Notes under the pieces: generated by a model | Seen by the model: only the letters and a program-made list of their open reading frames with translations | The model's database searches: none | Told to the model about the DNA's origin: nothing | Virus record (IMG/VR): IMGVR_UViG_3300045988_019579 | Location: 1-5,720 of that record | Reading direction: 5' to 3' (one strand) | DNA length: 5,720 nt | Source: a virus | Part shown: piece after piece, positions 1 through 5,720 of the stretch | Position numbering within the stretch: the stretch's first letter is position 1 | How the letters are laid out: every line of letters begins with the position of its first letter | Program-made: the position numbers and the translations under genes

Positions 1-55
1 GCCTTTTAGGTATTGCATTACCTGTTCGTCATTTGTTCCGGATTTGCTCATGCTC
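1..55. repeat. Terminal redundancy: 55 nt identical to 5666-5720 (circular genome closure, unit length 5665 nt)
   Basis: Base-by-base comparison of 1-55 (gccttttaggtattgcattacctgttcgtcatttgttccggatttgctcatgctc) with 5666-5720 gives identity at all 55 positions. The repeat sits exactly at both window ends, as expected for a k-mer overlap of a circular assembly. Confidence 0.95.
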
Positions 56-234
56 TGACTGCTTCCGCTGCCTTGCTGTGTGCTTCCGCCTGCGCTCTGG
101 CTTTGTCCTGTTTGACCCCATCCACCGAATAACCTTCCAACGTTTCCTGCGGCATTTGCCACATTTCCTATTGTGTTTGCTACTGTTCCAATGCCTCCGG
201 CTAACATCAAGAAGTCGTCTATTCCAAACGCCAT
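1..234 (-). CDS. VP2: VP2 minor capsid / DNA pilot protein, N-terminal part. The true ATG is at 234-232 and the ORF continues across the circular junction into 5665..4991.
   Basis: Manual translation of the minus strand from ATG 234 gives MAFGIDDFLMLAGGIGTVANTIGNVANAAGNVGRLFGGWGQTGQSQSAGGSTQQGSGSSQS. This runs in frame with no stop into MSKSGTNDEQVMQYLKG, which is the start of the 241-aa track ORF. An in-frame TAA lies 2 codons upstream of ATG 234, so this is the first possible start. The Gly-rich hydrophobic N-terminus is typical of microvirus VP2. Confidence 0.8.
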   Translation of the reverse strand, partial: MAFGIDDFLMLAGGIGTVANTIGNVANAAGNVGRLFGGWGQTGQSQSAGGSTQQGSGSSQSMSKSGTNDEQVMQYLKG

Positions 235-244
235 TTTTTAAAAT

Positions 245-264
245 AGCCGGGATTTCTCCCGGCT
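245..264 (-). promoter_or_regulatory. Stem-loop between the VP1 stop and VP2 start (weak intrinsic terminator/attenuator and/or SD-to-AUG bridging hairpin)
   Basis: The minus strand reads CTG TAA GAAAGGAGGA AGCCGGG AGAAAT CCCGGCT ATTTTAAAAA ATG. It has a perfect 7-bp stem (245-251 / 258-264) and a 6-nt loop, followed by AUUUU. The only Shine-Dalgarno for VP2 (AAAGGAGG, 266-273) lies immediately 5' of the stem. Confidence 0.55.
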
Positions 265-274
265 TCCTCCTTTC

Positions 275-1939
275 TTACAGTTTGTACAGCCCGGGCACGC
301 TGTAAAGCGGCATCCTGCGAGTTGTCTTGTTTGCTACGCGAATTGCTCCGAAGAACTGCGGTTCGTTCTCTACAATTAACGTCCTTGCAATTTCCTCTTT
401 TCCTTCTGTCATCCACTCTTGCGACAGTGTAGGAACTGCTTTGTAGTTGTCTGCATAGTGCCAGAAGTCGAGCGTTCCCGTTGCGTTGCTTCGCATTAAA
501 CCGCTTACACGGTTTGGTTTCATTCGGTAGTCTGCCCATGCTTCCTGATAGCCAAACGTTTCATCGTCTGTTGCTTCACCGGTGAGCATGATTTCTTTCT
601 TTTTTACCGGCTGTTCACCCAGATTTGCGAACTGTGGCACGTAGTAATCCAGCCTGTCCTTTCTGCTCCAAAAACGCTCAAGGCCTTGTTGGTAGCTTCT
701 GTTGTGTCTTACACAGCATACGCCAATCACAAAGCCGTGCTCTTCAAAGCTCTTCGTGAAAGAACTCTCGTTGATGGGTGTAACAGACATTGCACCGGTT
801 TCACCAATAGGTGTGTCGTTGCTTGTCTGCTGGCCACTCGTCTGCACGATTTGGTTAATGTTTACGTGATAGCGTCCACCACCCAGATATTCAGGCACTT
901 GTACCGTTTTATCTGAAATGATTACATCCCAGATTGCTTGCACCTGTTCACGGTATCTTGAGCCGCCCCGTGCCATTTCTTCGTAGTACTGTTGTACTGC
1001 GATGGCCTGTCTCAGCTGGTTGATAGTTGCTTGTGCTCCTGTTGCTGTTAGGTCTCCTGAAAGGTTTACGTACAGATTGCCTTGTTTTATTTGTGCTCCG
1101 CCTGATCCTGTTGCACCTGTTACTGTTGCCGCTCCACCACCGCCGCCGTCAATTGAACCTGCTGCCATTGAAGTTCCATTCATGAAGATTGTGCCCTGCG
1201 GTTTCTGTCCGGCTATATCTCTTAGTTCTACCGGATACAATCCGCTTAACGGGATTGTTACGTCTGGCCCTCTCTGCGGATATGGCAAACAGCTTGTGAA
1301 GTAGTCGTGGAATTTGTTTACTGGTAGAAGATTACCACCTGTTACAGCTTCCTGCAGCTCTTTTTCCATGGTGTCTTCTTCGCCTGTGCTCATTGTGTAT
1401 GTCACATCTGCATCGTCACTTTTCAGCACTGCGGCGTTGTCTACGTTTTCATCCCTGAAAAATTCGTTCCAGATTTTAACATATGCTCTGATTGGCAGTG
1501 CGTTGACACTGAACGGTTTCTTTACTTTTGTGGGTACTCCCATATAGTCCAGTATCGATTTTTCATTCGGCATTGGGGACATTTCATTTCCGTTGATTTT
1601 GATTTGTGGTACAGAATACGTTTTTGCTGGCATCCATGGAGTTTCTTCTACTTCGCCCATAAAGTATTTAAAGTTGTCCCATAAAATGCGGTTTGGACAG
1701 AAGAAATAGTAAAAGTCGATAAAACTATCGTCCATTACTGGGTATTTTGGTGTTGTCATGCGGATAATTGCCGCTGTATCCACGCTGAAAGTGTCGCCCG
1801 GTAGTACTTCGTCCACGTAAAATGGGATGAGTCTGCCCGCGTCGAACGTTGTCAAAATCGTTTGGTCTCTATTGAATCTCGTTCGGCTTGCTTTTATCTG
1901 CGGAATCTGGTTAAAATGCCGTTCATTATTCCGATTCAT
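275..1939 (-). CDS. VP1: Major capsid protein VP1 (Microviridae F-like capsid protein)
   Basis: 554-aa ORF. The N-terminus (FNQIPQIKASRTRFNRDQTILTTFDAGRLIPFYVDEVLPGDTF) and the overall length match the gokushovirus-type VP1 pattern. The ATG is preceded by GGAAGGAGAGG. It is the largest ORF in a 5.7-kb circular genome that also carries VP2/VP3/VP4. Confidence 0.95.
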   Translation of the reverse strand: MNRNNERHFNQIPQIKASRTRFNRDQTILTTFDAGRLIPFYVDEVLPGDTFSVDTAAIIRMTTPKYPVMDDSFIDFYYFFCPNRILWDNFKYFMGEVEETPWMPAKTYSVPQIKINGNEMSPMPNEKSILDYMGVPTKVKKPFSVNALPIRAYVKIWNEFFRDENVDNAAVLKSDDADVTYTMSTGEEDTMEKELQEAVTGGNLLPVNKFHDYFTSCLPYPQRGPDVTIPLSGLYPVELRDIAGQKPQGTIFMNGTSMAAGSIDGGGGGAATVTGATGSGGAQIKQGNLYVNLSGDLTATGAQATINQLRQAIAVQQYYEEMARGGSRYREQVQAIWDVIISDKTVQVPEYLGGGRYHVNINQIVQTSGQQTSNDTPIGETGAMSVTPINESSFTKSFEEHGFVIGVCCVRHNRSYQQGLERFWSRKDRLDYYVPQFANLGEQPVKKKEIMLTGEATDDETFGYQEAWADYRMKPNRVSGLMRSNATGTLDFWHYADNYKAVPTLSQEWMTEGKEEIARTLIVENEPQFFGAIRVANKTTRRMPLYSVPGLYKL

Positions 1940-2324
1940 TCTTTACCTCTCCTTCCTTTGACGTTTCCTTTGGCGTTTCCTTCTGCATCTCCTGTAGTGC
2001 AATTGTGTTTGCTTGCGCCGTTGCAATCATTCGGTGATATTCGTGAATGTTCTGCGGCCATTCGGTAATATCCATCTCTGTCCCGTCCAATGCTCCCTGT
2101 GAAAGGCTCTGCATAAACTGCGGGTCAAAACTCGCTTTTCTTACAATGTTTTTAATGTCGCATTCATCTGCATAGCTTTCAATTTCTGCTTGGATATCGA
2201 TACTTTTGGTTTCTTGCAGATATTCTTTGCCTTCTTTATCTTTTGCCCAAACGTATTGTTTTCGCTGTTTTTCGCCTGATTCAGAAAAGAAGGGCTTTCG
2301 CCCTTCTTCGTACCTTTTATTCAT
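1926..2324 (-). CDS. VP3: Internal scaffolding protein VP3 (Chlamydia-phage Chp2 scaffold-like)
   Basis: 132-aa acidic ORF directly upstream of VP1, overlapping it by 14 nt. It contains ECDIKNIVRK, resembling the ECDINxIMKKF motif I recall in gokushovirus VP3. SD GGGAGGG lies 8 nt upstream of the ATG. Confidence 0.8.
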   Translation of the reverse strand: MNKRYEEGRKPFFSESGEKQRKQYVWAKDKEGKEYLQETKSIDIQAEIESYADECDIKNIVRKASFDPQFMQSLSQGALDGTEMDITEWPQNIHEYHRMIATAQANTIALQEMQKETPKETSKEGEVKNESE

Positions 2325-2556
2325 TCGACTTACCCTCCCACACTTTCTCTTTGCAGTTGGTGAATTCTCCGTTTTCGTCGTTGAACACTGCCAGTTTGTA
2401 CCCGGTGTAGTCCTGCGGTGACTGGCCGATAAAGGTCTTTTCGTCCTTCTGCATTACGTTGCACATGCGTGCAAACGTCTGGTCGTTTTTGCTTTCACCA
2501 ATCCATGCGTAACATTTTGCTACGCTGTCCCAAACACCATAATAGGTGTGTTCCAT
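2317..2556 (-). CDS. Conserved microvirus small non-structural protein (VP5-like position), function unknown
   Basis: 79-aa ORF with SD AAGGAG 7 nt upstream of the ATG. Its stop overlaps the VP3 start by 8 nt. The pattern YGVWDSVAKCY...FARM...PQDYTGYKLAVFNDENGEF resembles the xVYDxKAxxY...AxRxF...PEDYxLxxIGxFDxxTG signature that I recall from small proteins of gut microviruses. This is a memory-based match, not a search. Confidence 0.65.
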   Translation of the reverse strand: MEHTYYGVWDSVAKCYAWIGESKNDQTFARMCNVMQKDEKTFIGQSPQDYTGYKLAVFNDENGEFTNCKEKVWEGKSNE

Positions 2557-2574
2557 TGCTTTTCTCCTTTTCTC

Positions 2575-2697
2575 TTACAGCCGAATACCGCCGCGCATAG
2601 GTTTCTGGCTCAGGTTGATGCTTTTCGTTTTTCGCGCGGTTACGTTAAACATGCGCTTGTCTTTCGCACCTTTCATTACTTTACGATGCCGGCCCAT
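2575..2697 (-). CDS. Small basic DNA-binding/packaging protein (phiX174 J analogue, gokushovirus ORF8/VP8-like), 40 aa, absent from the ORF track
   Basis: Manual translation gives MGRHRKVMKGAKDKRMFNVTARKTKSINLSQKPMRGGIRL followed by a stop. 14 of 40 residues are Arg/Lys/His. The C-terminal PMRGGIRL matches the ending I recall for gokushovirus ORF8-type proteins. SD AAGGGAG lies 7 nt upstream, and the start overlaps the preceding ORF by 17 nt. Confidence 0.72.
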   Translation of the reverse strand: MGRHRKVMKGAKDKRMFNVTARKTKSINLSQKPMRGGIRL

Positions 2698-2908
2698 TGT
2701 TGTACTCCCTTCTCATTAGCTCTAATTCTATGTCGTTTGCCAATTTTTTCATTCTCCATATTTCATCGATGATTTTTTTTGCATCTTCGATTTTGGATAC
2801 TTTTTTTATGAGCTTGAACTTTGCCTCGATGTTTGTATAGAGTCTTTCTTCTTGAAATCTTAATTCATTTTCGGTCTGGTCTCTGACGTTCCACGATTTT
2901 GCAATCAT
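2681..2908 (-). CDS. Hypothetical protein, 75 aa, charged/coiled-coil-like, no recognisable family
   Basis: The ORF fills the space exactly between neighbouring genes. SD AAGGAG lies 9 nt upstream of the ATG and is embedded in the end of the preceding small ORF. The heptad-like charged sequence is EAKFKLIKKVSKIEDAKKIIDEIWRMKKLANDIELEL. No transmembrane segment is present. Confidence 0.55.
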   Translation of the reverse strand: MIAKSWNVRDQTENELRFQEERLYTNIEAKFKLIKKVSKIEDAKKIIDEIWRMKKLANDIELELMRREYNNGPAS

Positions 2909-2914
2909 CTTTGT

Positions 2915-3031
2915 TTACTCCTTTTCGTTCGGCTGGTCGTGCAGAGCGTGATAGATCTCGTCCAGCTTTTCCAGAATCTGCATCATGATTTTGATTGCCT
3001 GCTTGACGTCTTTGATGCTGATAAGTGCCAT
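2915..3031 (-). CDS. Hypothetical small protein, 38 aa (MALISIKDVKQAIKIMMQILEKLDEIYHALHDQPNEKE), absent from the ORF track
   Basis: The ATG lies 4 nt after the peptidase stop, with AAGGGGGTG 7 nt upstream. The stop lies 6 nt before the next ATG. It reads as an amphipathic helix. Support comes only from packing and RBS geometry. Confidence 0.4.
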   Translation of the reverse strand: MALISIKDVKQAIKIMMQILEKLDEIYHALHDQPNEKE

Positions 3032-3035
3032 TTGT

Positions 3036-3425
3036 TTACACCCCCTTTCTGTATTTATTTTCTCGCACGTCTATGTGCACAAAGTTATTGTACCTGATTA
3101 CTCCACCGCCTAATTCGCCGAGCACCTTGCTCGCATATTCTGCCACCTCCTTGCTATTATGATTTTTTACTACAATGTCGGCCGCCATGCCTTTCACGTG
3201 ATAGCTGTTTTTTGCGCCGCCTACTTTTGTGTTCCATGTTGGTGTTCTGTATCCTGAATTGATGATTACTGGTTCTTTAAAGTGCTCTCTGATTCTTTCT
3301 AAGAGTGCGAGCAGTTCAGGTGCCCACAAAAATTCTTTTGTTCCGTCTTTGCATCTAAATTCTTCTGCTTTGAAGTGTTGCGTTAATCGGTCGTTGTTTG
3401 TTTGGTTTAGGATTGCTGTACTCAT
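3036..3425 (-). CDS. Zinc D,D- or L,D-peptidase of the LAS/M15 superfamily (Peptidase_M15_3 / DUF882-like), putative peptidoglycan hydrolase
   Basis: 129-aa ORF with an exact SxHxxGxAxD signature (S74-Y-H76-V-K-G79-M-A81-A-D83) and SGYR (57-60). A distal HxD (FVH117-I-D119) gives the H/D/H zinc ligand set. The N-terminal region FKAEEFRCKDG is typical of the family. There is no signal peptide or transmembrane segment. SD AAGAGGTGG lies upstream of the ATG. Confidence 0.88.
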   Translation of the reverse strand: MSTAILNQTNNDRLTQHFKAEEFRCKDGTKEFLWAPELLALLERIREHFKEPVIINSGYRTPTWNTKVGGAKNSYHVKGMAADIVVKNHNSKEVAEYASKVLGELGGGVIRYNNFVHIDVRENKYRKGV

Positions 3426-3446
3426 TTTAGACCACCTCTTGTTTGT

Positions 3447-3475
3447 ATTTTATTTTTTTCTGTTCGCTTTGTCAA
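3447..3475 (-). promoter_or_regulatory. Sigma70-type promoter driving the whole minus-strand gene array
   Basis: The minus strand reads AAAATTTTTTAAAAAAACC TTGACA (3475-3470), a 17-nt spacer, TAAAAT (3452-3447), then ACAAAC AAGAGGTGGT CTAAA ATG. The -35 is a perfect consensus, the spacing is optimal, the -10 matches 5/6, and an A/T-rich UP-like tract lies upstream. The predicted start near 3440 gives a leader of about 15 nt. Confidence 0.6.
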
Positions 3476-3503
3476 GGTTTTTTTAAAAAATTTTGGCAAA
3501 GCG
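3465..3503. promoter_or_regulatory. Imperfect 39-bp palindrome overlapping the -35 element (possible operator)
   Basis: CGCTTTGTCAA (3465-3475) and TTGGCAAAGCG (3493-3503) are inverted repeats with 1 mismatch. They flank GGTTTTTTTAAAAAATT, which is itself nearly palindromic. Confidence 0.4.
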
Positions 3504-3524
3504 AGCAGATGCCCGCGGCAGGCG

Positions 3525-3688
3525 TTTTTAACATTTTCCACAGACTTTTCAACATTTCCACATTGTTAAACTTTAGCATAACAGAGTGTTTTAACATTTT
3601 AACATTTTCTCAACAAATCTTTTAACGTTTGTTTTTACTGTTTTTTAACGTTCTAACGTTCAAAATTATCTGTTTTCAACTTTTCCAC
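3525..3688. repeat. Iteron array: AACATTT(T)(CCACA) copies and TTTTAACGTT copies
   Basis: Plus-strand copies of the first motif are AACATTTTCCACA 3530-3542, AACATTTCCACA 3551-3562, tandem AACATTTT 3593-3600 and 3601-3608, and CAACTTTTCCAC 3677-3688. Copies of the second motif are TTTTAACGTT 3620-3629 and 3643-3652, and TAACGTT 3654-3660. Most copies are preceded by a T-run. Confidence 0.7.
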
Positions 3689-3728
3689 TCACTCTACTAC
3701 TACGGCTACAACAAGTTAATATTATAAA

Positions 3729-3774
3729 TACGCGTGCGCATGTGCGCGCGTCTACGCGTGCGCATGTGCGCGCG
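3729..3774. repeat. Tandem direct repeat, 2 x 22 nt, TACGCGTGCGCATGTGCGCGCG, perfectly alternating pyrimidine/purine and GC-rich
   Basis: Unit 1 is 3729-3750 and unit 2 is 3753-3774. The units are identical and separated by TC. Each contains the palindromes ACGCGT, TGCGCA, CATG and GCGCGC, and a self-complementary core GCGCA-TG-TGCGC. Confidence 0.9.
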
Positions 3775-3795
3775 ATACATTAGCATCTATCGATA

Positions 3796-3855
3796 GCGAC
3801 AGCCCCATGAGTTGGGGCGCTGTCGCAAGGGGGAGACCAAAGGTCTCCCCCTTGC
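3796..3855. other. Two abutting long hairpins (ssDNA/RNA secondary-structure elements)
   Basis: In hairpin A, GCGACAGCCCCA (3796-3807) pairs with TGGGG (3813-3817) plus CTGTCGC (3820-3826), with a 2-nt bulge and loop TGAGT. In hairpin B, GCAAGGGGGAGACC (3825-3838) pairs perfectly with GGTCTCCCCCTTGC (3842-3855), giving a 14-bp stem and loop AAA. A 10-bp perfect palindrome CTATCGATAG sits just before them at 3787-3796. Confidence 0.85.
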
Positions 3856-3929
3856 TAAACTGAATAGAGTGTAATGTGCTGTTTTTAAATCATTTTTCGG
3901 TGTCTCTTTGAGAAACCAAACGGAAGAGT

Positions 3930-3963
3930 AAGCCCAGTACCCTACTTGATAGGTACTGGGCTT
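3930..3963 (-). terminator. Strong hairpin 12 nt downstream of the VP4 stop (candidate end of the transcription unit or ssDNA structural element)
   Basis: AAGCCCAGTACC (3930-3941) and GGTACTGGGCTT (3952-3963) form a perfect 12-bp stem with a 10-nt loop. On the minus strand it is followed by ACTCTTCCGTTTGGTTTCTC, which is only a weak U-tract, so terminator function is uncertain. Confidence 0.4.
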
Positions 3964-3974
3964 GGTGACACCAA

Positions 3975-4994
3975 TTAGAGAATTCCACGTTTTTTCGTTT
4001 GTTTTTTGATAACACGCTCCTTTGTTTCTAACTGTGTTTTGTAGTCTTTGCCTTCCAGCTGTAGCCTTTTTTGCTCGATTGCTTTTCTTTGTCTGTTCTG
4101 CTTGATTCTCCAAAGCCTTTCAGGGTTTTCTTTTTCCATCATTTTTTCATAGTACCTCGGTATTTGTGCTTTCTTTCCGTTGGTGCATTGAATGTAGCCT
4201 TGTTTCCAGATTTCTTCTTTGTGCTCCTGATAGTAGGCATCTCCTAGCCCCGGTTTAAGTGACATACACGCGAATGGCTTTTGCTGTCCTAGCTCATAGT
4301 ATGCATTTGATTTCTGGCCGTTAATTTCGTACATCTTTTTCGTTACGTATCCTGCAACATATCTATATGTTTCTGGTACTGCTTGTGCGATTTGGATTTG
4401 TCCGTTTCCCCATAGCTTCTTCATCCATTCACTTGTGTAATACCCGTTGTGGTGAATTTTGTACAGCTGTTTCAGGTCTGTTGCTTCCCATCCGTATAGT
4501 ATCATATGGTAGTGCGGCCTTGCCGTTTGTTCTCCATATTCTCCCGCACAGAAGAACCTTAATTTTGCTTTGTATGCTTTTCTGAGTCTCTTTAAGAATT
4601 TTTGTACGTCTGTGTATAGTAGTGTTTGCACACTTTCCGGTGATTTTTCCCCCGGCTTCCATACATACTGTACTTTTCTCATGATTTCGCCCGTTTTAAG
4701 AATCATTCCCGGTACATGGTCATCATCATAGGTTAATGTTATAAACCATACTTGTTCTTTCGGCCATTGTCGCGCTTCTAGTTCAATTCTTGTTGTCCAG
4801 TCTTCTCTTTGCTGTATTCTGCATCCTATGCATTGCCCACAAGGTATTAACATAACCTTTGGTTCATACATCAAATCTTCATATTTTAATTTTTTGCCCA
4901 CTCTTTCAGAAAAGCGGGCAAGTGAATACACTTGCCCGCTGATTTCTCTGTTTTCTGGGCTGTATATCCGTATTAACGGTTTATAGCAGCTCAC
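3975..4994 (-). CDS. VP4: Replication initiation protein VP4 (HUH rolling-circle endonuclease, phiX174 gpA-like)
   Basis: 339-aa ORF with motif 1 FITLTYDD, HUH motif RPHYHMILYG and the catalytic double-Tyr motif YRYVAGYVTKK (compare gpA YVAKYVNKK). It also carries the gokushovirus-type N-terminus SCYKPL and the Cys cluster PCGQCIGCR. The start is GTG at 4994-4992, overlapping the VP2 TGA (GTGA). Confidence 0.93.
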   Translation of the reverse strand: MSCYKPLIRIYSPENREISGQVYSLARFSERVGKKLKYEDLMYEPKVMLIPCGQCIGCRIQQREDWTTRIELEARQWPKEQVWFITLTYDDDHVPGMILKTGEIMRKVQYVWKPGEKSPESVQTLLYTDVQKFLKRLRKAYKAKLRFFCAGEYGEQTARPHYHMILYGWEATDLKQLYKIHHNGYYTSEWMKKLWGNGQIQIAQAVPETYRYVAGYVTKKMYEINGQKSNAYYELGQQKPFACMSLKPGLGDAYYQEHKEEIWKQGYIQCTNGKKAQIPRYYEKMMEKENPERLWRIKQNRQRKAIEQKRLQLEGKDYKTQLETKERVIKKQTKKRGIL

Positions 4995-5716
4995 TTTAAA
5001 TAATCACCCGGCTTTCTCTTTTGTCCGTAGCTTCCTGTTTTGTCTTGCATGGTTATTGCGTTCTTTTTTGCGCCACCAAAGTTTTGTGCTGTTATGCCTC
5101 CATGCTCGTTTTTTCCGGATGTTCTGTTGTTTGGCACGTTGTTATTCATTACGTTATTGACACCCTGGTTAATTCCATCGAGTGCTTTTGCTAATCCATA
5201 CGGTGACATTCCTGTTGAACTTAGCATCTGATTCCAGCTTTGTGCTGCGTTGTACCAATCACTTTGTGACCAGCTTTCACTGCTGTACGAGTTTGGCACA
5301 AAGCCGCTTGCCCTGCTTACTCCTAAAGCACTTGCTGTCGGTGCTCCCATGCTTGCGCCTGAAATCGTTCCTGCGCTACCTCCCGGCGTGCTTGCGCCGC
5401 CGTTTTGGAATGCCAATATAGGATTAAGTCCAGCTTTTTTCATGTCCTCAACTGCCCTCTGATAGGCTGTATTTGACATGTATTCTTGCCATTCCCGGTT
5501 TTTCATTGCTTCTGTCGAGTTAAAGTTCATTGCCGCCGCGTTCTCGATGTGATTGTATATGCCTTGCGCGATTGCTCCCAACGTGTTGTAACCCATCTGT
5601 TCTAGCATCGATCGCTGGTTAAACTGGCTTTGTCTTTGTCCTTCTGCGTTCTGATATTGGTATGCGCCTTTTAGGTATTGCATTACCTGTTCGTCATTTG
5701 TTCCGGATTTGCTCAT
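4991..5716 (-). CDS. VP2: VP2 minor capsid / DNA pilot protein, C-terminal 241 codons. The ATG at 5716 is internal, and the real start is at window position 234 across the junction.
   Basis: It contains YQRAVEDMKKAGLNPILAF, the AGLNP motif typical of gokushovirus VP2, and a Gly/Ser/Ala-rich low-complexity tract. It lies between VP1 and VP4. The reading frame is open upstream through 5717-5720, which equals 52-55, and continues to 234. Confidence 0.85.
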   Translation of the reverse strand: MSKSGTNDEQVMQYLKGAYQYQNAEGQRQSQFNQRSMLEQMGYNTLGAIAQGIYNHIENAAAMNFNSTEAMKNREWQEYMSNTAYQRAVEDMKKAGLNPILAFQNGGASTPGGSAGTISGASMGAPTASALGVSRASGFVPNSYSSESWSQSDWYNAAQSWNQMLSSTGMSPYGLAKALDGINQGVNNVMNNNVPNNRTSGKNEHGGITAQNFGGAKKNAITMQDKTGSYGQKRKPGDYLK

Positions 5717-5720
5717 GCTC

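Follow-up and report, generated by a model that had tools for sequence, protein, structure and literature searches.

The DNA analysed here, positions 1 to 5,720 of IMG/VR virus record IMGVR_UViG_3300045988_019579 (the window, meaning the whole 5,720-nt stretch), is a complete circular genome of 5665 nt, circularly permuted and with a terminal redundancy of 55 nt (1-55 = 5666-5720). It belongs to a gut gokushovirus, and is 91% identical to GenBank MZ821031 and 78-83% identical to Microviridae from pig, rhesus and human faeces. The minus strand carries all the genes, and the sole large non-coding region (3426-3974) is bounded by the VP4 stop (3975) and by the start of a peptidase gene (3425). 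Inside this region stands a GC-rich repeat, which an earlier reading of the sequence (the original prediction) described as a duplicated, Z-DNA-prone element with the architecture of an origin or of a binding site for the replication initiator VP4. We show here that each of the two repeats supplies one arm of a single long GC-rich hairpin, formed in single-stranded nucleic acid of plus polarity, and that this hairpin is strand-specific, selected for pairing, conserved and polymorphic. The genes and the parts of the element are as follows.

275-1939, minus strand: VP1 capsid gene (Pfam Phage_F)
Further window genes, minus strand: VP3 scaffold, ORF5 (open reading frame 5) and VP2
3036-3425, minus strand: peptidase M15 gene
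3975-4994, minus strand: VP4 replication initiator gene (Pfam PF23343 REP_ORF2-G2P)
3729-3750, plus strand: unit 1 of the repeat, TACGCGTGCGCATGTGCGCGCG, in which 3731-3750 is the 5' arm of the hairpin
3753-3774, plus strand: unit 2, identical to unit 1, in which 3755-3774 is the 3' arm
3731-3774, plus strand: GC hairpin, the putative functional unit, of 20 bp (14 G-C, 4 G·T and 2 A-T) with the loop TCTA at 3751-3754

The repeat in the window

The description of the repeat itself in the original prediction was accurate. The 22-mer TACGCGTGCGCATGTGCGCGCG is present twice (Tandem Repeats Finder gives period 24, 1.9 copies and 100% match, and a repeat finder concurs), it is non-coding as claimed, pyrimidines and purines alternate at 22/22 positions of both units, and ACGCGT, TGCGCA, CATG and GCGCGC are each contained in the unit. 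The unit is also GC-rich in AT-rich surroundings, with 73% G+C against 25-27% in 100-nt windows across 3550-3699. The maximal alternating runs, of 24 nt (3728-3751) and 22 nt (3753-3774), are in phase and broken solely by C3752; both are beyond chance, as the longest run in 500 dinucleotide-preserving shuffles of the genome had a mean of 12.8 and a maximum of 20 nt. It is unlikely that an assembly artefact lies behind the two copies, because the same two-copy form occurs in independent assemblies (GenBank MZ821031 and four IMG/VR contigs). The proposal that each unit can fold on its own was correct for the plus strand, where the fold is real (9 bp, -9.8 kcal/mol), but the property is strand-dependent and weaker on the minus strand.

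A hairpin specific to the strand opposite the genes

The tandem appearance of the element in the window follows from the unit, CGCGTGCGCA|TGTGCGCGCG, which is self-complementary, so that its duplication automatically gives a 20-bp hairpin with the loop TCTA. On the plus strand, which is antisense to the genes, the stem is without mismatches, whereas each G·T pair corresponds to a C·A mismatch on the gene strand. Folded as single-stranded DNA, the plus strand reaches -23.5 kcal/mol (z -2.7) and the minus strand -15.8 kcal/mol (z +0.4), the latter no better than shuffled sequences.

The comparison extended to about 200 related genomes overall, in two samples: 118 genomes with a recognisable VP1, retrieved through an anchor motif in the non-coding region, and 80 loci retrieved independently through VP4 similarity. 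Nearly every version of the element is a single uninterrupted stem of 18-25 bp with a loop of 3-4 nt, and in most lineages the halves are mirror images, for example ATGCACGTGCGCGTGCGCG-ATTA-CGTGCGCGTGCGCGTGCAT or CACGCATGT...ACATGCGTG. Outside the closest relatives the conserved property is thus a hairpin rather than a tandem direct repeat. Indeed the direct-repeat identity of the halves, with a median of 86% in a sequence of low complexity, reaches at least 95% in only 5 of 61 distinct versions. As DNA the antisense strand folds more stably in all 72 distinct versions (72/72; mean -22.2 versus -16.1 kcal/mol), as RNA it does so in 61/61 (mean -35.8 versus -23.7 kcal/mol), and in the VP4-sampled set the antisense fold is the more stable in 54/55. 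G·T wobbles make up approximately 22-24% of the stem on the plus strand, and their polarity is antisense to the genes in every arrangement class described below, even where the neighbouring iteron block is inverted; it is also fixed relative to the origin-like hairpin close to VP4. The spacers between the arms vary (TT, AT, C, TAT and others), and hence inter-arm phase is not conserved, while strict alternation over 18-26 nt per arm is retained in every version.

Selection on pairing

Pairs were counted over the first 17 positions from the loop in 77 versions, with shuffling within the pyrimidine and purine classes on one arm as the control. The observed pairs were 877 G-C, 310 G·T, 94 A-T, 9 A·C and 19 others, where the shuffles lead one to expect 36±5 A-T and 68±5 A·C. 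When 20 diverse versions are aligned without gaps, 98.5% of the cells pair, compared with 92.7±0.7% in shuffles, and both sides have changed in 14 of the 20 pairs, compared with 5.0±1.5 in shuffles, none of which (0/500) reached 14; registers slid by ±2 perform worse. Three independent G>A changes occurred among the closest relatives, and each of them (3/3) lies opposite a T. Mutation bias alone could supply T in place of C on the plus strand but cannot put A opposite T, and a duplex function would be blind to the asymmetry between the strands; pairing is therefore selected in the single strand of plus polarity. The alternation itself can be kept by the same process, since a (CG)n-like stem whose evolution passes through G·T intermediates changes by transitions alone, and transitions preserve the purine/pyrimidine pattern. 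The variable inter-arm phase argues against one continuous Z-DNA tract as the feature under selection.

Distribution and arrangement among relatives

The original prediction had named the presence of conserved counterparts in close relatives as its own test, and a two-part element was found at the same place in most of them. The paired alternating element, conserved in well over 100 gut microvirus genomes, is carried by 81 of the 118 anchor-sampled genomes and by 71 of the 80 VP4-sampled loci, and six of six GenBank relatives have a two-part alternating GC element in the same place with a differing sequence. MZ821031 shows full identity over the 76 nt around the repeat; the exact 22-mer is found in 9 IMG/VR contigs, in 4 of these as two exact copies. 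One close relative (L135 = L216, IMGVR_UViG_3300045988_001766, VP4 96% identical) has the sequence of the window minus exactly one 24-nt unit. In the sub-clade of the window there are five unit variants, each present as a pair of identical direct copies with a 24-bp spacing, which points to concerted evolution and, together with the one-copy variant, to repeated slippage. In a further genome, L081, there is one unit, and a larger deletion after it has taken out hairpins A and B together with the origin-like hairpin; this may be a defective genome or a misassembly.

The position of the element relative to VP4, the conservation of which the original prediction had also proposed to test, varies among relatives, as does its position relative to the AT-rich block. 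On the plus strand of the window the order is peptidase promoter and palindrome, iterons, anchor, AT stretch, GC hairpin, hairpins B and A, and VP4-proximal hairpin, with the following features.

3447-3475, minus strand: sigma-70-type promoter TTGACA-17-TAAAAT of the peptidase M15 gene, within a palindrome with 25-nt arms (3459-3509)
3525-3693, plus strand: AT-rich iteron block, conserved, with at least 10 copies of 8-11-nt repeats (TTTTAACA / TTTCCACA / TTTCAACA / TTTTAACG)
3694-3716, plus strand: anchor CTACTACTACGGCTACAACAAGT, highly conserved, with the core CTACTACTACNNCTACAACAAGT
3716-3730, unstranded: AT-only stretch TTAATATTATAAATA, conserved in AT-richness and not in sequence or length (approximately 10-25 nt)
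3796-3826, unstranded: hairpin B, GCGACAGCCCC...GGCGCTGTCGC, with a conserved bulge and preceded by the conserved TATCGATAGCGACAG
3825-3855, unstranded: hairpin A, with a perfect 14-bp stem GCAAGGGGGAGACC / GGTCTCCCCCTTGC
3930-3972, plus strand: origin-like, VP4-proximal hairpin (3930-3963) with a 12-bp stem and the loop CTACTTGATA, then GGTGACACC; it abuts the VP4 stop

Class I, the majority, has the arrangement of the window. In class III (VP4 approximately 81% identical) the iterons, anchor and AT stretch are inverted in place; neither the GC hairpin nor the VP4-proximal hairpin changes its orientation with respect to the genes, and the GC hairpin lies on the other side of the iterons. In class II (VP4 approximately 38% identical) VP4 is preceded by the non-coding region, and where a GC hairpin is present it lies on either side of the iteron block. 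Even in L083, with a VP4 of 37% identity, one can recognise the module composed of hairpin B, TATCGATAG and the GC hairpin. When the class I and class III arrangements are compared (window 3774-3729 with L059 -233 to -180), one breakpoint of the iteron-block inversion lies at most about 6 nt from the GC hairpin; it is possible that this long palindrome favoured the rearrangement. The classical gokushoviruses Chp2, phiMH2K and SpV4 have neither a GC hairpin nor a clear CTTGATA hairpin. SpV4 does contain CTAAACTTGATAAGCAAGGTTTAGGTGA on the sense strand, but this lies inside an ORF and is a weak lead only.

A candidate nick site and the proposed polarity of the genome

The CTTG/ATA nick motif is not found in 3716-3774, and a much better candidate for the nick site of the initiator lies 170-220 nt away, where the conserved hairpin at 3930-3963 carries the loop CCCTACTTGATA (3940-3951, plus strand). 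This sequence equals the phiX174 CCCAACTTGATA origin core (compared as CCCAACTTG/ATA) with one mismatch, and 0.02 matches are expected by chance. We take CTTG/ATA to be the cleavage site, which would place the putative nick at G3948/A3949 on the plus strand. In the VP4-proximal hairpin, relatives conserve the sequence of the loop, (Y)TACTTGATAG, and of a 3' box, GTGACAC, while the stems covary. The hairpin at 3930-3963, on the strand opposite the genes, is thus the best candidate for the VP4 nick site. CTTGATA is also part of the pC194 origin sequence (PMC7072734). The likeness of the adjacent AT-only stretch to HUH nick sites, which the original prediction also noted, is real but weak: TAATATTAT is present, and relatives keep the AT-richness of the stretch but not its sequence. 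The broader claim, that the locus has the architecture of a Rep site or origin, survives in part. There are replication-type signals around the repeat, and a role as part of an origin region is plausible, but a single-strand hairpin fits better than a duplicated duplex site.

The VP4-proximal hairpin may have further roles. In the sense direction a T-run comes after it in several lineages, and it may double as the VP4 terminator. In class II (L013, L040, L083 and L132) the origin-like hairpin, approximately 20-90 nt after the anchor, lies between the Shine-Dalgarno-like GAGGTG and the VP4 start. Its folding there would bring GAGGTG close to the start codon, which suggests structure-dependent translation of VP4.

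The same strand stands out in its composition. At 4-fold degenerate sites of the sense strand A accounts for 46% and T for 12% in the 118 genomes (50% and 12% in the window), whereas T accounts for 50% in Chp2 and 65% in SpV4; phiMH2K has a sense strand that is A-rich like that of the window clade. Phages with single-stranded DNA generally prefer NNT codons, a preference ascribed to deamination (C>T) of the single strand (PMC3278643). A sister gut clade, for which L272, L273 and L301-L315 were compared, is instructive. L272 and 13 of 15 sampled close relatives carry the same hairpin, ...CTACTTGATAG...GGTGACAC, on the sense strand, and the 4-fold sites of the L272 clade are 51-66% T and 10-15% A on that strand, the mirror image of the window clade; L271 is likewise. 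The motif-bearing strand is thus the T-rich strand in these genomes, regardless of gene orientation. Among 11 groups of related genomes the singleton substitutions agree in direction, as on the plus strand G>T is 4.3 times as frequent as C>A and C>T 1.4 times as frequent as G>A. The same substitution signature has identified the single-stranded strand in maize streak virus (PMC2572610). The G·T asymmetry that characterizes the GC hairpin is uninformative in the VP4-proximal hairpin, as the stems there consist almost entirely of Watson-Crick pairs.

In a microvirus only the displaced, packaged strand stays single-stranded for long, and this has been assumed to be the coding strand. In the genomes analysed here, however, it is the antisense strand that bears the CTACTTG/ATAG...GGTGACAC hairpin, the T-rich skew, the excess of both G>T and C>T, and the hairpin tolerant of G·T. 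We infer that the chance that the plus strand is the one displaced and packaged is about even. A wider proposal is consistent with the same observations and in part favoured by them: that in a large clade of human and animal gut gokushoviruses the origin is inverted relative to the genes, so that the strand complementary to the mRNA is packaged ('negative-sense') and the GC hairpin is the complementary-strand origin there. We hold this to be possible, with a probability a little short of one half.

Proposed function

The role we consider most likely for the GC hairpin is that of a complementary-strand origin or priming signal, on the grounds that its layout resembles that of M13 and of the single-strand origins (sso) of rolling-circle plasmids, and that VP4 belongs to the same Pfam family as gene II protein. 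A structured element upstream of the nick on the same strand is the layout of both the M13 intergenic region and the plasmid sso, and in the window the plus strand has the GC hairpin 175-218 nt upstream of its putative nick; the hairpin is likewise upstream in classes I and III. In this scheme VP4 would nick the plus strand at the conserved CTACTTG/ATAG hairpin (3930-3963), rolling-circle replication would displace this strand, which would then be packaged, and the GC hairpin would be among the last parts of it to be displaced and exposed. The stable stem would exclude single-strand-binding protein and so mark the start of the second strand for host primase, the PriA primosome or RNA polymerase, and the GC hairpin would act as the complementary-strand origin or as part of it. 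The alternating CG/TG sequence would be the frozen legacy of a (CG)n-like self-complementary tract, modified by transitions through G·T intermediates, which would lengthen and shorten by slippage of the self-complementary 24-nt unit. The proposal that the hairpin acts on the strand displaced by rolling-circle replication as a complementary-strand origin, which implies that the clade packages the antisense strand, is a tentative one to which we give somewhat less than an even chance, and its priming step is speculative.

It should be emphasized that several observations weigh against this scheme and the strand polarity it entails. About one third of related genomes, including whole sub-lineages, are without the element, and one close relative has a single unit; the element is therefore not essential. 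In class II the GC hairpin is downstream, not upstream, of the origin-like hairpin. The hairpin contains no known sso motif (RSB, CS-6) and no -35/-10-like stem, with only TAGCGA nearby, and a plasmid database search with 3700-3975 gave no match. Strict alternation is equally what a Z-DNA function would preserve. The skew and the asymmetry of substitutions are mutually dependent, and thus form one line of evidence, and could reflect codon selection. The L272 clade, in which a joint flip of wobble polarity and motif would be predicted, is without the GC hairpin. To our knowledge, moreover, all characterized Microviridae have been described as positive-sense.

Alternative explanations

It could be argued that the element acts as a duplex in the replicative form, by flipping into Z-DNA, by extruding a cruciform or by providing paired palindromic sites for VP4 or a host protein beside an AT-rich unwinding region. 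The Z-DNA-prone character asserted by the original prediction is real, in that at least 12 bp of strict, CG/TG-rich alternation are present (runs of 24 and 22 nt), and the retention of alternation over 18-26 nt per arm in every version is what such a function would require. The element also usually adjoins the AT-rich iteron block or AT stretch, and the five variants of the window sub-clade, as identical direct copies 24 bp apart, could represent two equivalent sites. Alternation alone, however, fails to explain what is conserved. A duplex cannot distinguish G·T on the plus from G·T on the minus strand, yet on one strand the ratio of G·T to A·C is 310:9. A central non-alternating spacer is always present, of 3-4 nt between equal arms, which are features of a hairpin, and the phase across it is variable. 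A cruciform would require the mismatched arm of the minus strand to fold as well, A-T covariation is not accounted for by Z-DNA, the AT stretch is not always adjacent, and direct-repeat identity is lost beyond the closest relatives. We consider a duplex function unlikely.

A second possibility is that the element has no dedicated function and is a slippage-prone (CG/TG)n quasi-palindrome in a tolerant slot, in which T has replaced C through strand-biased C>T mutation. Its polymorphic copy number (one or two units), its absence from about a third of relatives and the concerted evolution of its units, which fits repeated slippage, are all compatible with this, as is the strong T-ward pressure on the plus strand. 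Such pressure does not, however, produce A opposite T in 94 pairs where 36 are expected, nor reduce A·C to 9 where 68 are expected; double-sided changes are far above those in shuffles, and the same architecture recurs across lineages whose VP4 is only 37% identical. These data make the absence of a function distinctly unlikely.

The strand specificity would also be met by a hairpin in an RNA antisense to the genes, such as a small regulatory or 5'-stabilised transcript, in which G·U pairs are natural. In keeping with this the RNA fold is the more stable on the plus strand (the means of -35.8 and, for the sense strand, -23.7 kcal/mol given above), and in class I a TATAAT-like hexamer lies in the AT stretch just upstream. 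Nevertheless, no sigma-70-like promoter was found on the plus strand, the hairpin is unchanged in classes II and III although its upstream context is wholly different, and no T-run follows it on either strand. Nor was there an Rfam match above noise, the best being a sub-threshold, generic microRNA-type hairpin match to the mir-297 model (28 bits against a threshold of 90). An antisense RNA is accordingly an improbable explanation, to which we attach a small chance.

Two further explanations are very improbable. One is a recombination site, either a breakpoint or hotspot of iteron inversion, for which the breakpoint within about 6 nt of the hairpin could be cited, or an integration site of the Xer/dif type folded from single-stranded DNA as in CTX phage. 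The sequence GTGCGCA resembles part of the XerC arm of dif, but there is no dif-like architecture (two 11-nt arms and a 6-8-nt centre), and a dif/Xer site was rejected on inspection as the remainder of that architecture is absent. A search of 185,579 species genomes with the anchor motif revealed no integrated copy, which gives no indication of an att or dif role and no host assignment; the matches were one free 5.7-kb class II microvirus contig, binned with a Bacteroides metagenome-assembled genome, and three chance matches to coding repeats. Enterobacterial gokushovirus prophages, by comparison, use canonical dif motifs, and dif motifs are the only feature of non-coding DNA mentioned in the account of these resurrected viruses (PMC7062461). 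The other, a sense-strand terminator or 3' stabiliser of the VP1-VP2-VP4 operon, would suit the position downstream of VP4 and the T/A-rich TATTTATAATATT next in the sense direction, but is contradicted by a sense stem with approximately 24% C·A mismatches that folds no better than shuffles (z +0.4), by the location of the element upstream of VP4 in some class II genomes, by a scan for intrinsic terminators across 3300-4100 that returned 0 terminator-like sites, and by the VP4-proximal hairpin, which, with its T-runs in several lineages, already fits the role.

Relation to known systems

As a non-coding feature the GC hairpin is new and well supported, and it falls within a known general kind, the strand-specific hairpin signals of single-stranded DNA replicons; the inference on polarity is the more surprising by-product. 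Similar to the plasmid sso elements (ssoA, ssoT, ssoU and ssoW) and the minus-strand origins of M13 and G4, it is a long imperfect non-coding palindrome that is meaningful on one strand, lies in classes I and III shortly upstream of the putative nick on the displaced strand, and is modular, exchangeable and dispensable. The protein of filamentous phage M13 that shares its Pfam family with VP4 (REP_ORF2-G2P) is the gene II protein. In contrast with those origins, the gokushovirus element is purely alternating CG/TG, shares no sequence with plasmids and has no RSB, CS-6 or promoter-like stem motif; its role in priming is putative, and the reading requires displacement of the strand antisense to the genes, for which Microviridae offer no known precedent. 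With the (CG)n/(TG)n tracts that form Z-DNA it has in common strict alternation, 73% G+C, a length of 22-24 nt and a place in a supercoiled circular replicon, but it differs from them in being split by a 3-4-nt loop, in its equal arms and variable phase, and in its strand-asymmetric, covarying substitutions, none of which is needed for Z-DNA.

The phiX174 gene A origin (CAACTTG/ATATTAATAAC...) and the double-strand origins of the pC194 family (CTTG/ATA) belong, like the genome studied here, to replicons with a HUH-type initiator. Their counterpart in the window is CCCTACTTGATA with its downstream GACAC box, 170-220 nt from the GC hairpin and on the same strand; the differences are that the repeat is without the motif, that the AT stretch is not conserved in sequence, and that the motif lies opposite the genes and in a hairpin loop. 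The order of iterons, AT-rich stretch and GC palindrome in class I is also reminiscent of the RSF1010 oriV with ssiA and ssiB. This order, however, is not conserved, the class III hairpin being on the other side of the iterons, and there is no plasmid-type initiator or primase gene.

Gokushoviruses are among the most abundant gut phages with single-stranded DNA, and their replication signals were previously undefined; our literature search found no account of a gokushovirus origin, of the GC hairpin described here or of Z-DNA in Microviridae. One non-coding region of 550 nt now offers three elements, namely a strand-specific GC hairpin, a hairpin with a phiX174/pC194-like nick site and an invertible iteron block, and the analysis yields a simple prediction of the virion strand. 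If the antisense strand is indeed packaged, the description of Microviridae as positive-sense would need to be qualified, and inferences from skew and codon usage in single-stranded DNA phages would have to consider the orientation of the origin. The hairpin is, in addition, a compact marker with which metagenomic microvirus genomes can be classified and oriented.

Neighbouring elements of the non-coding region

A search with the anchor core CTACTACTACNNCTACAACAAGT brought up at least 120 IMG/VR contigs, almost exclusively from microviruses. Together with the iteron block this core is 74-90% identical in nucleotide sequence across many gokushoviruses (for example L059 and L093, at -230 to +23 relative to the anchor, and L013 and L040). 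Relative to the genes the block is found in either orientation, even when VP4 is 81% identical between two genomes, and this independence of orientation suggests that the iterons are a duplex protein-binding array. Their variants are intermediate between the consensus of the DnaA box (TTATCCACA) and that of the Spo0A box (TTCGNCA); TTTTCCACA fits a relaxed DnaA-box consensus, but the family-wide motif TTTCAACA does not. In the adjoining AT stretch the CRESS-like nonanucleotide TAATATTAT was dropped as a candidate because it is not conserved among relatives.

On the other side of the GC hairpin, TATCGATAGCGACAG (3786-3800) is conserved from the window to L083 (VP4 37% identical) and includes TAGCGA (3793-3798). 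This hexamer resembles CS-6 (TAGCGT/A) of ssoA elements, a likeness of six bases only. At the opposite end of the region, the palindrome at 3459-3509, with 25-nt arms that are 84% complementary around a 1-nt centre, overlaps the -35 hexamer of the peptidase promoter and may be an operator. Between promoter and iteron block relatives have a GC-rich structured segment of approximately 130 nt, CCTAGGACAGGAGCGCC...GGCGCTCC..., GATCGGCAAAGCCGATC... (seen in L001 at 1-140, L003 at 560-700, and L005 and L006 at 560-700), the window counterpart of which is reduced to GATGCCCGCGGCAGGCG (3510-3525).

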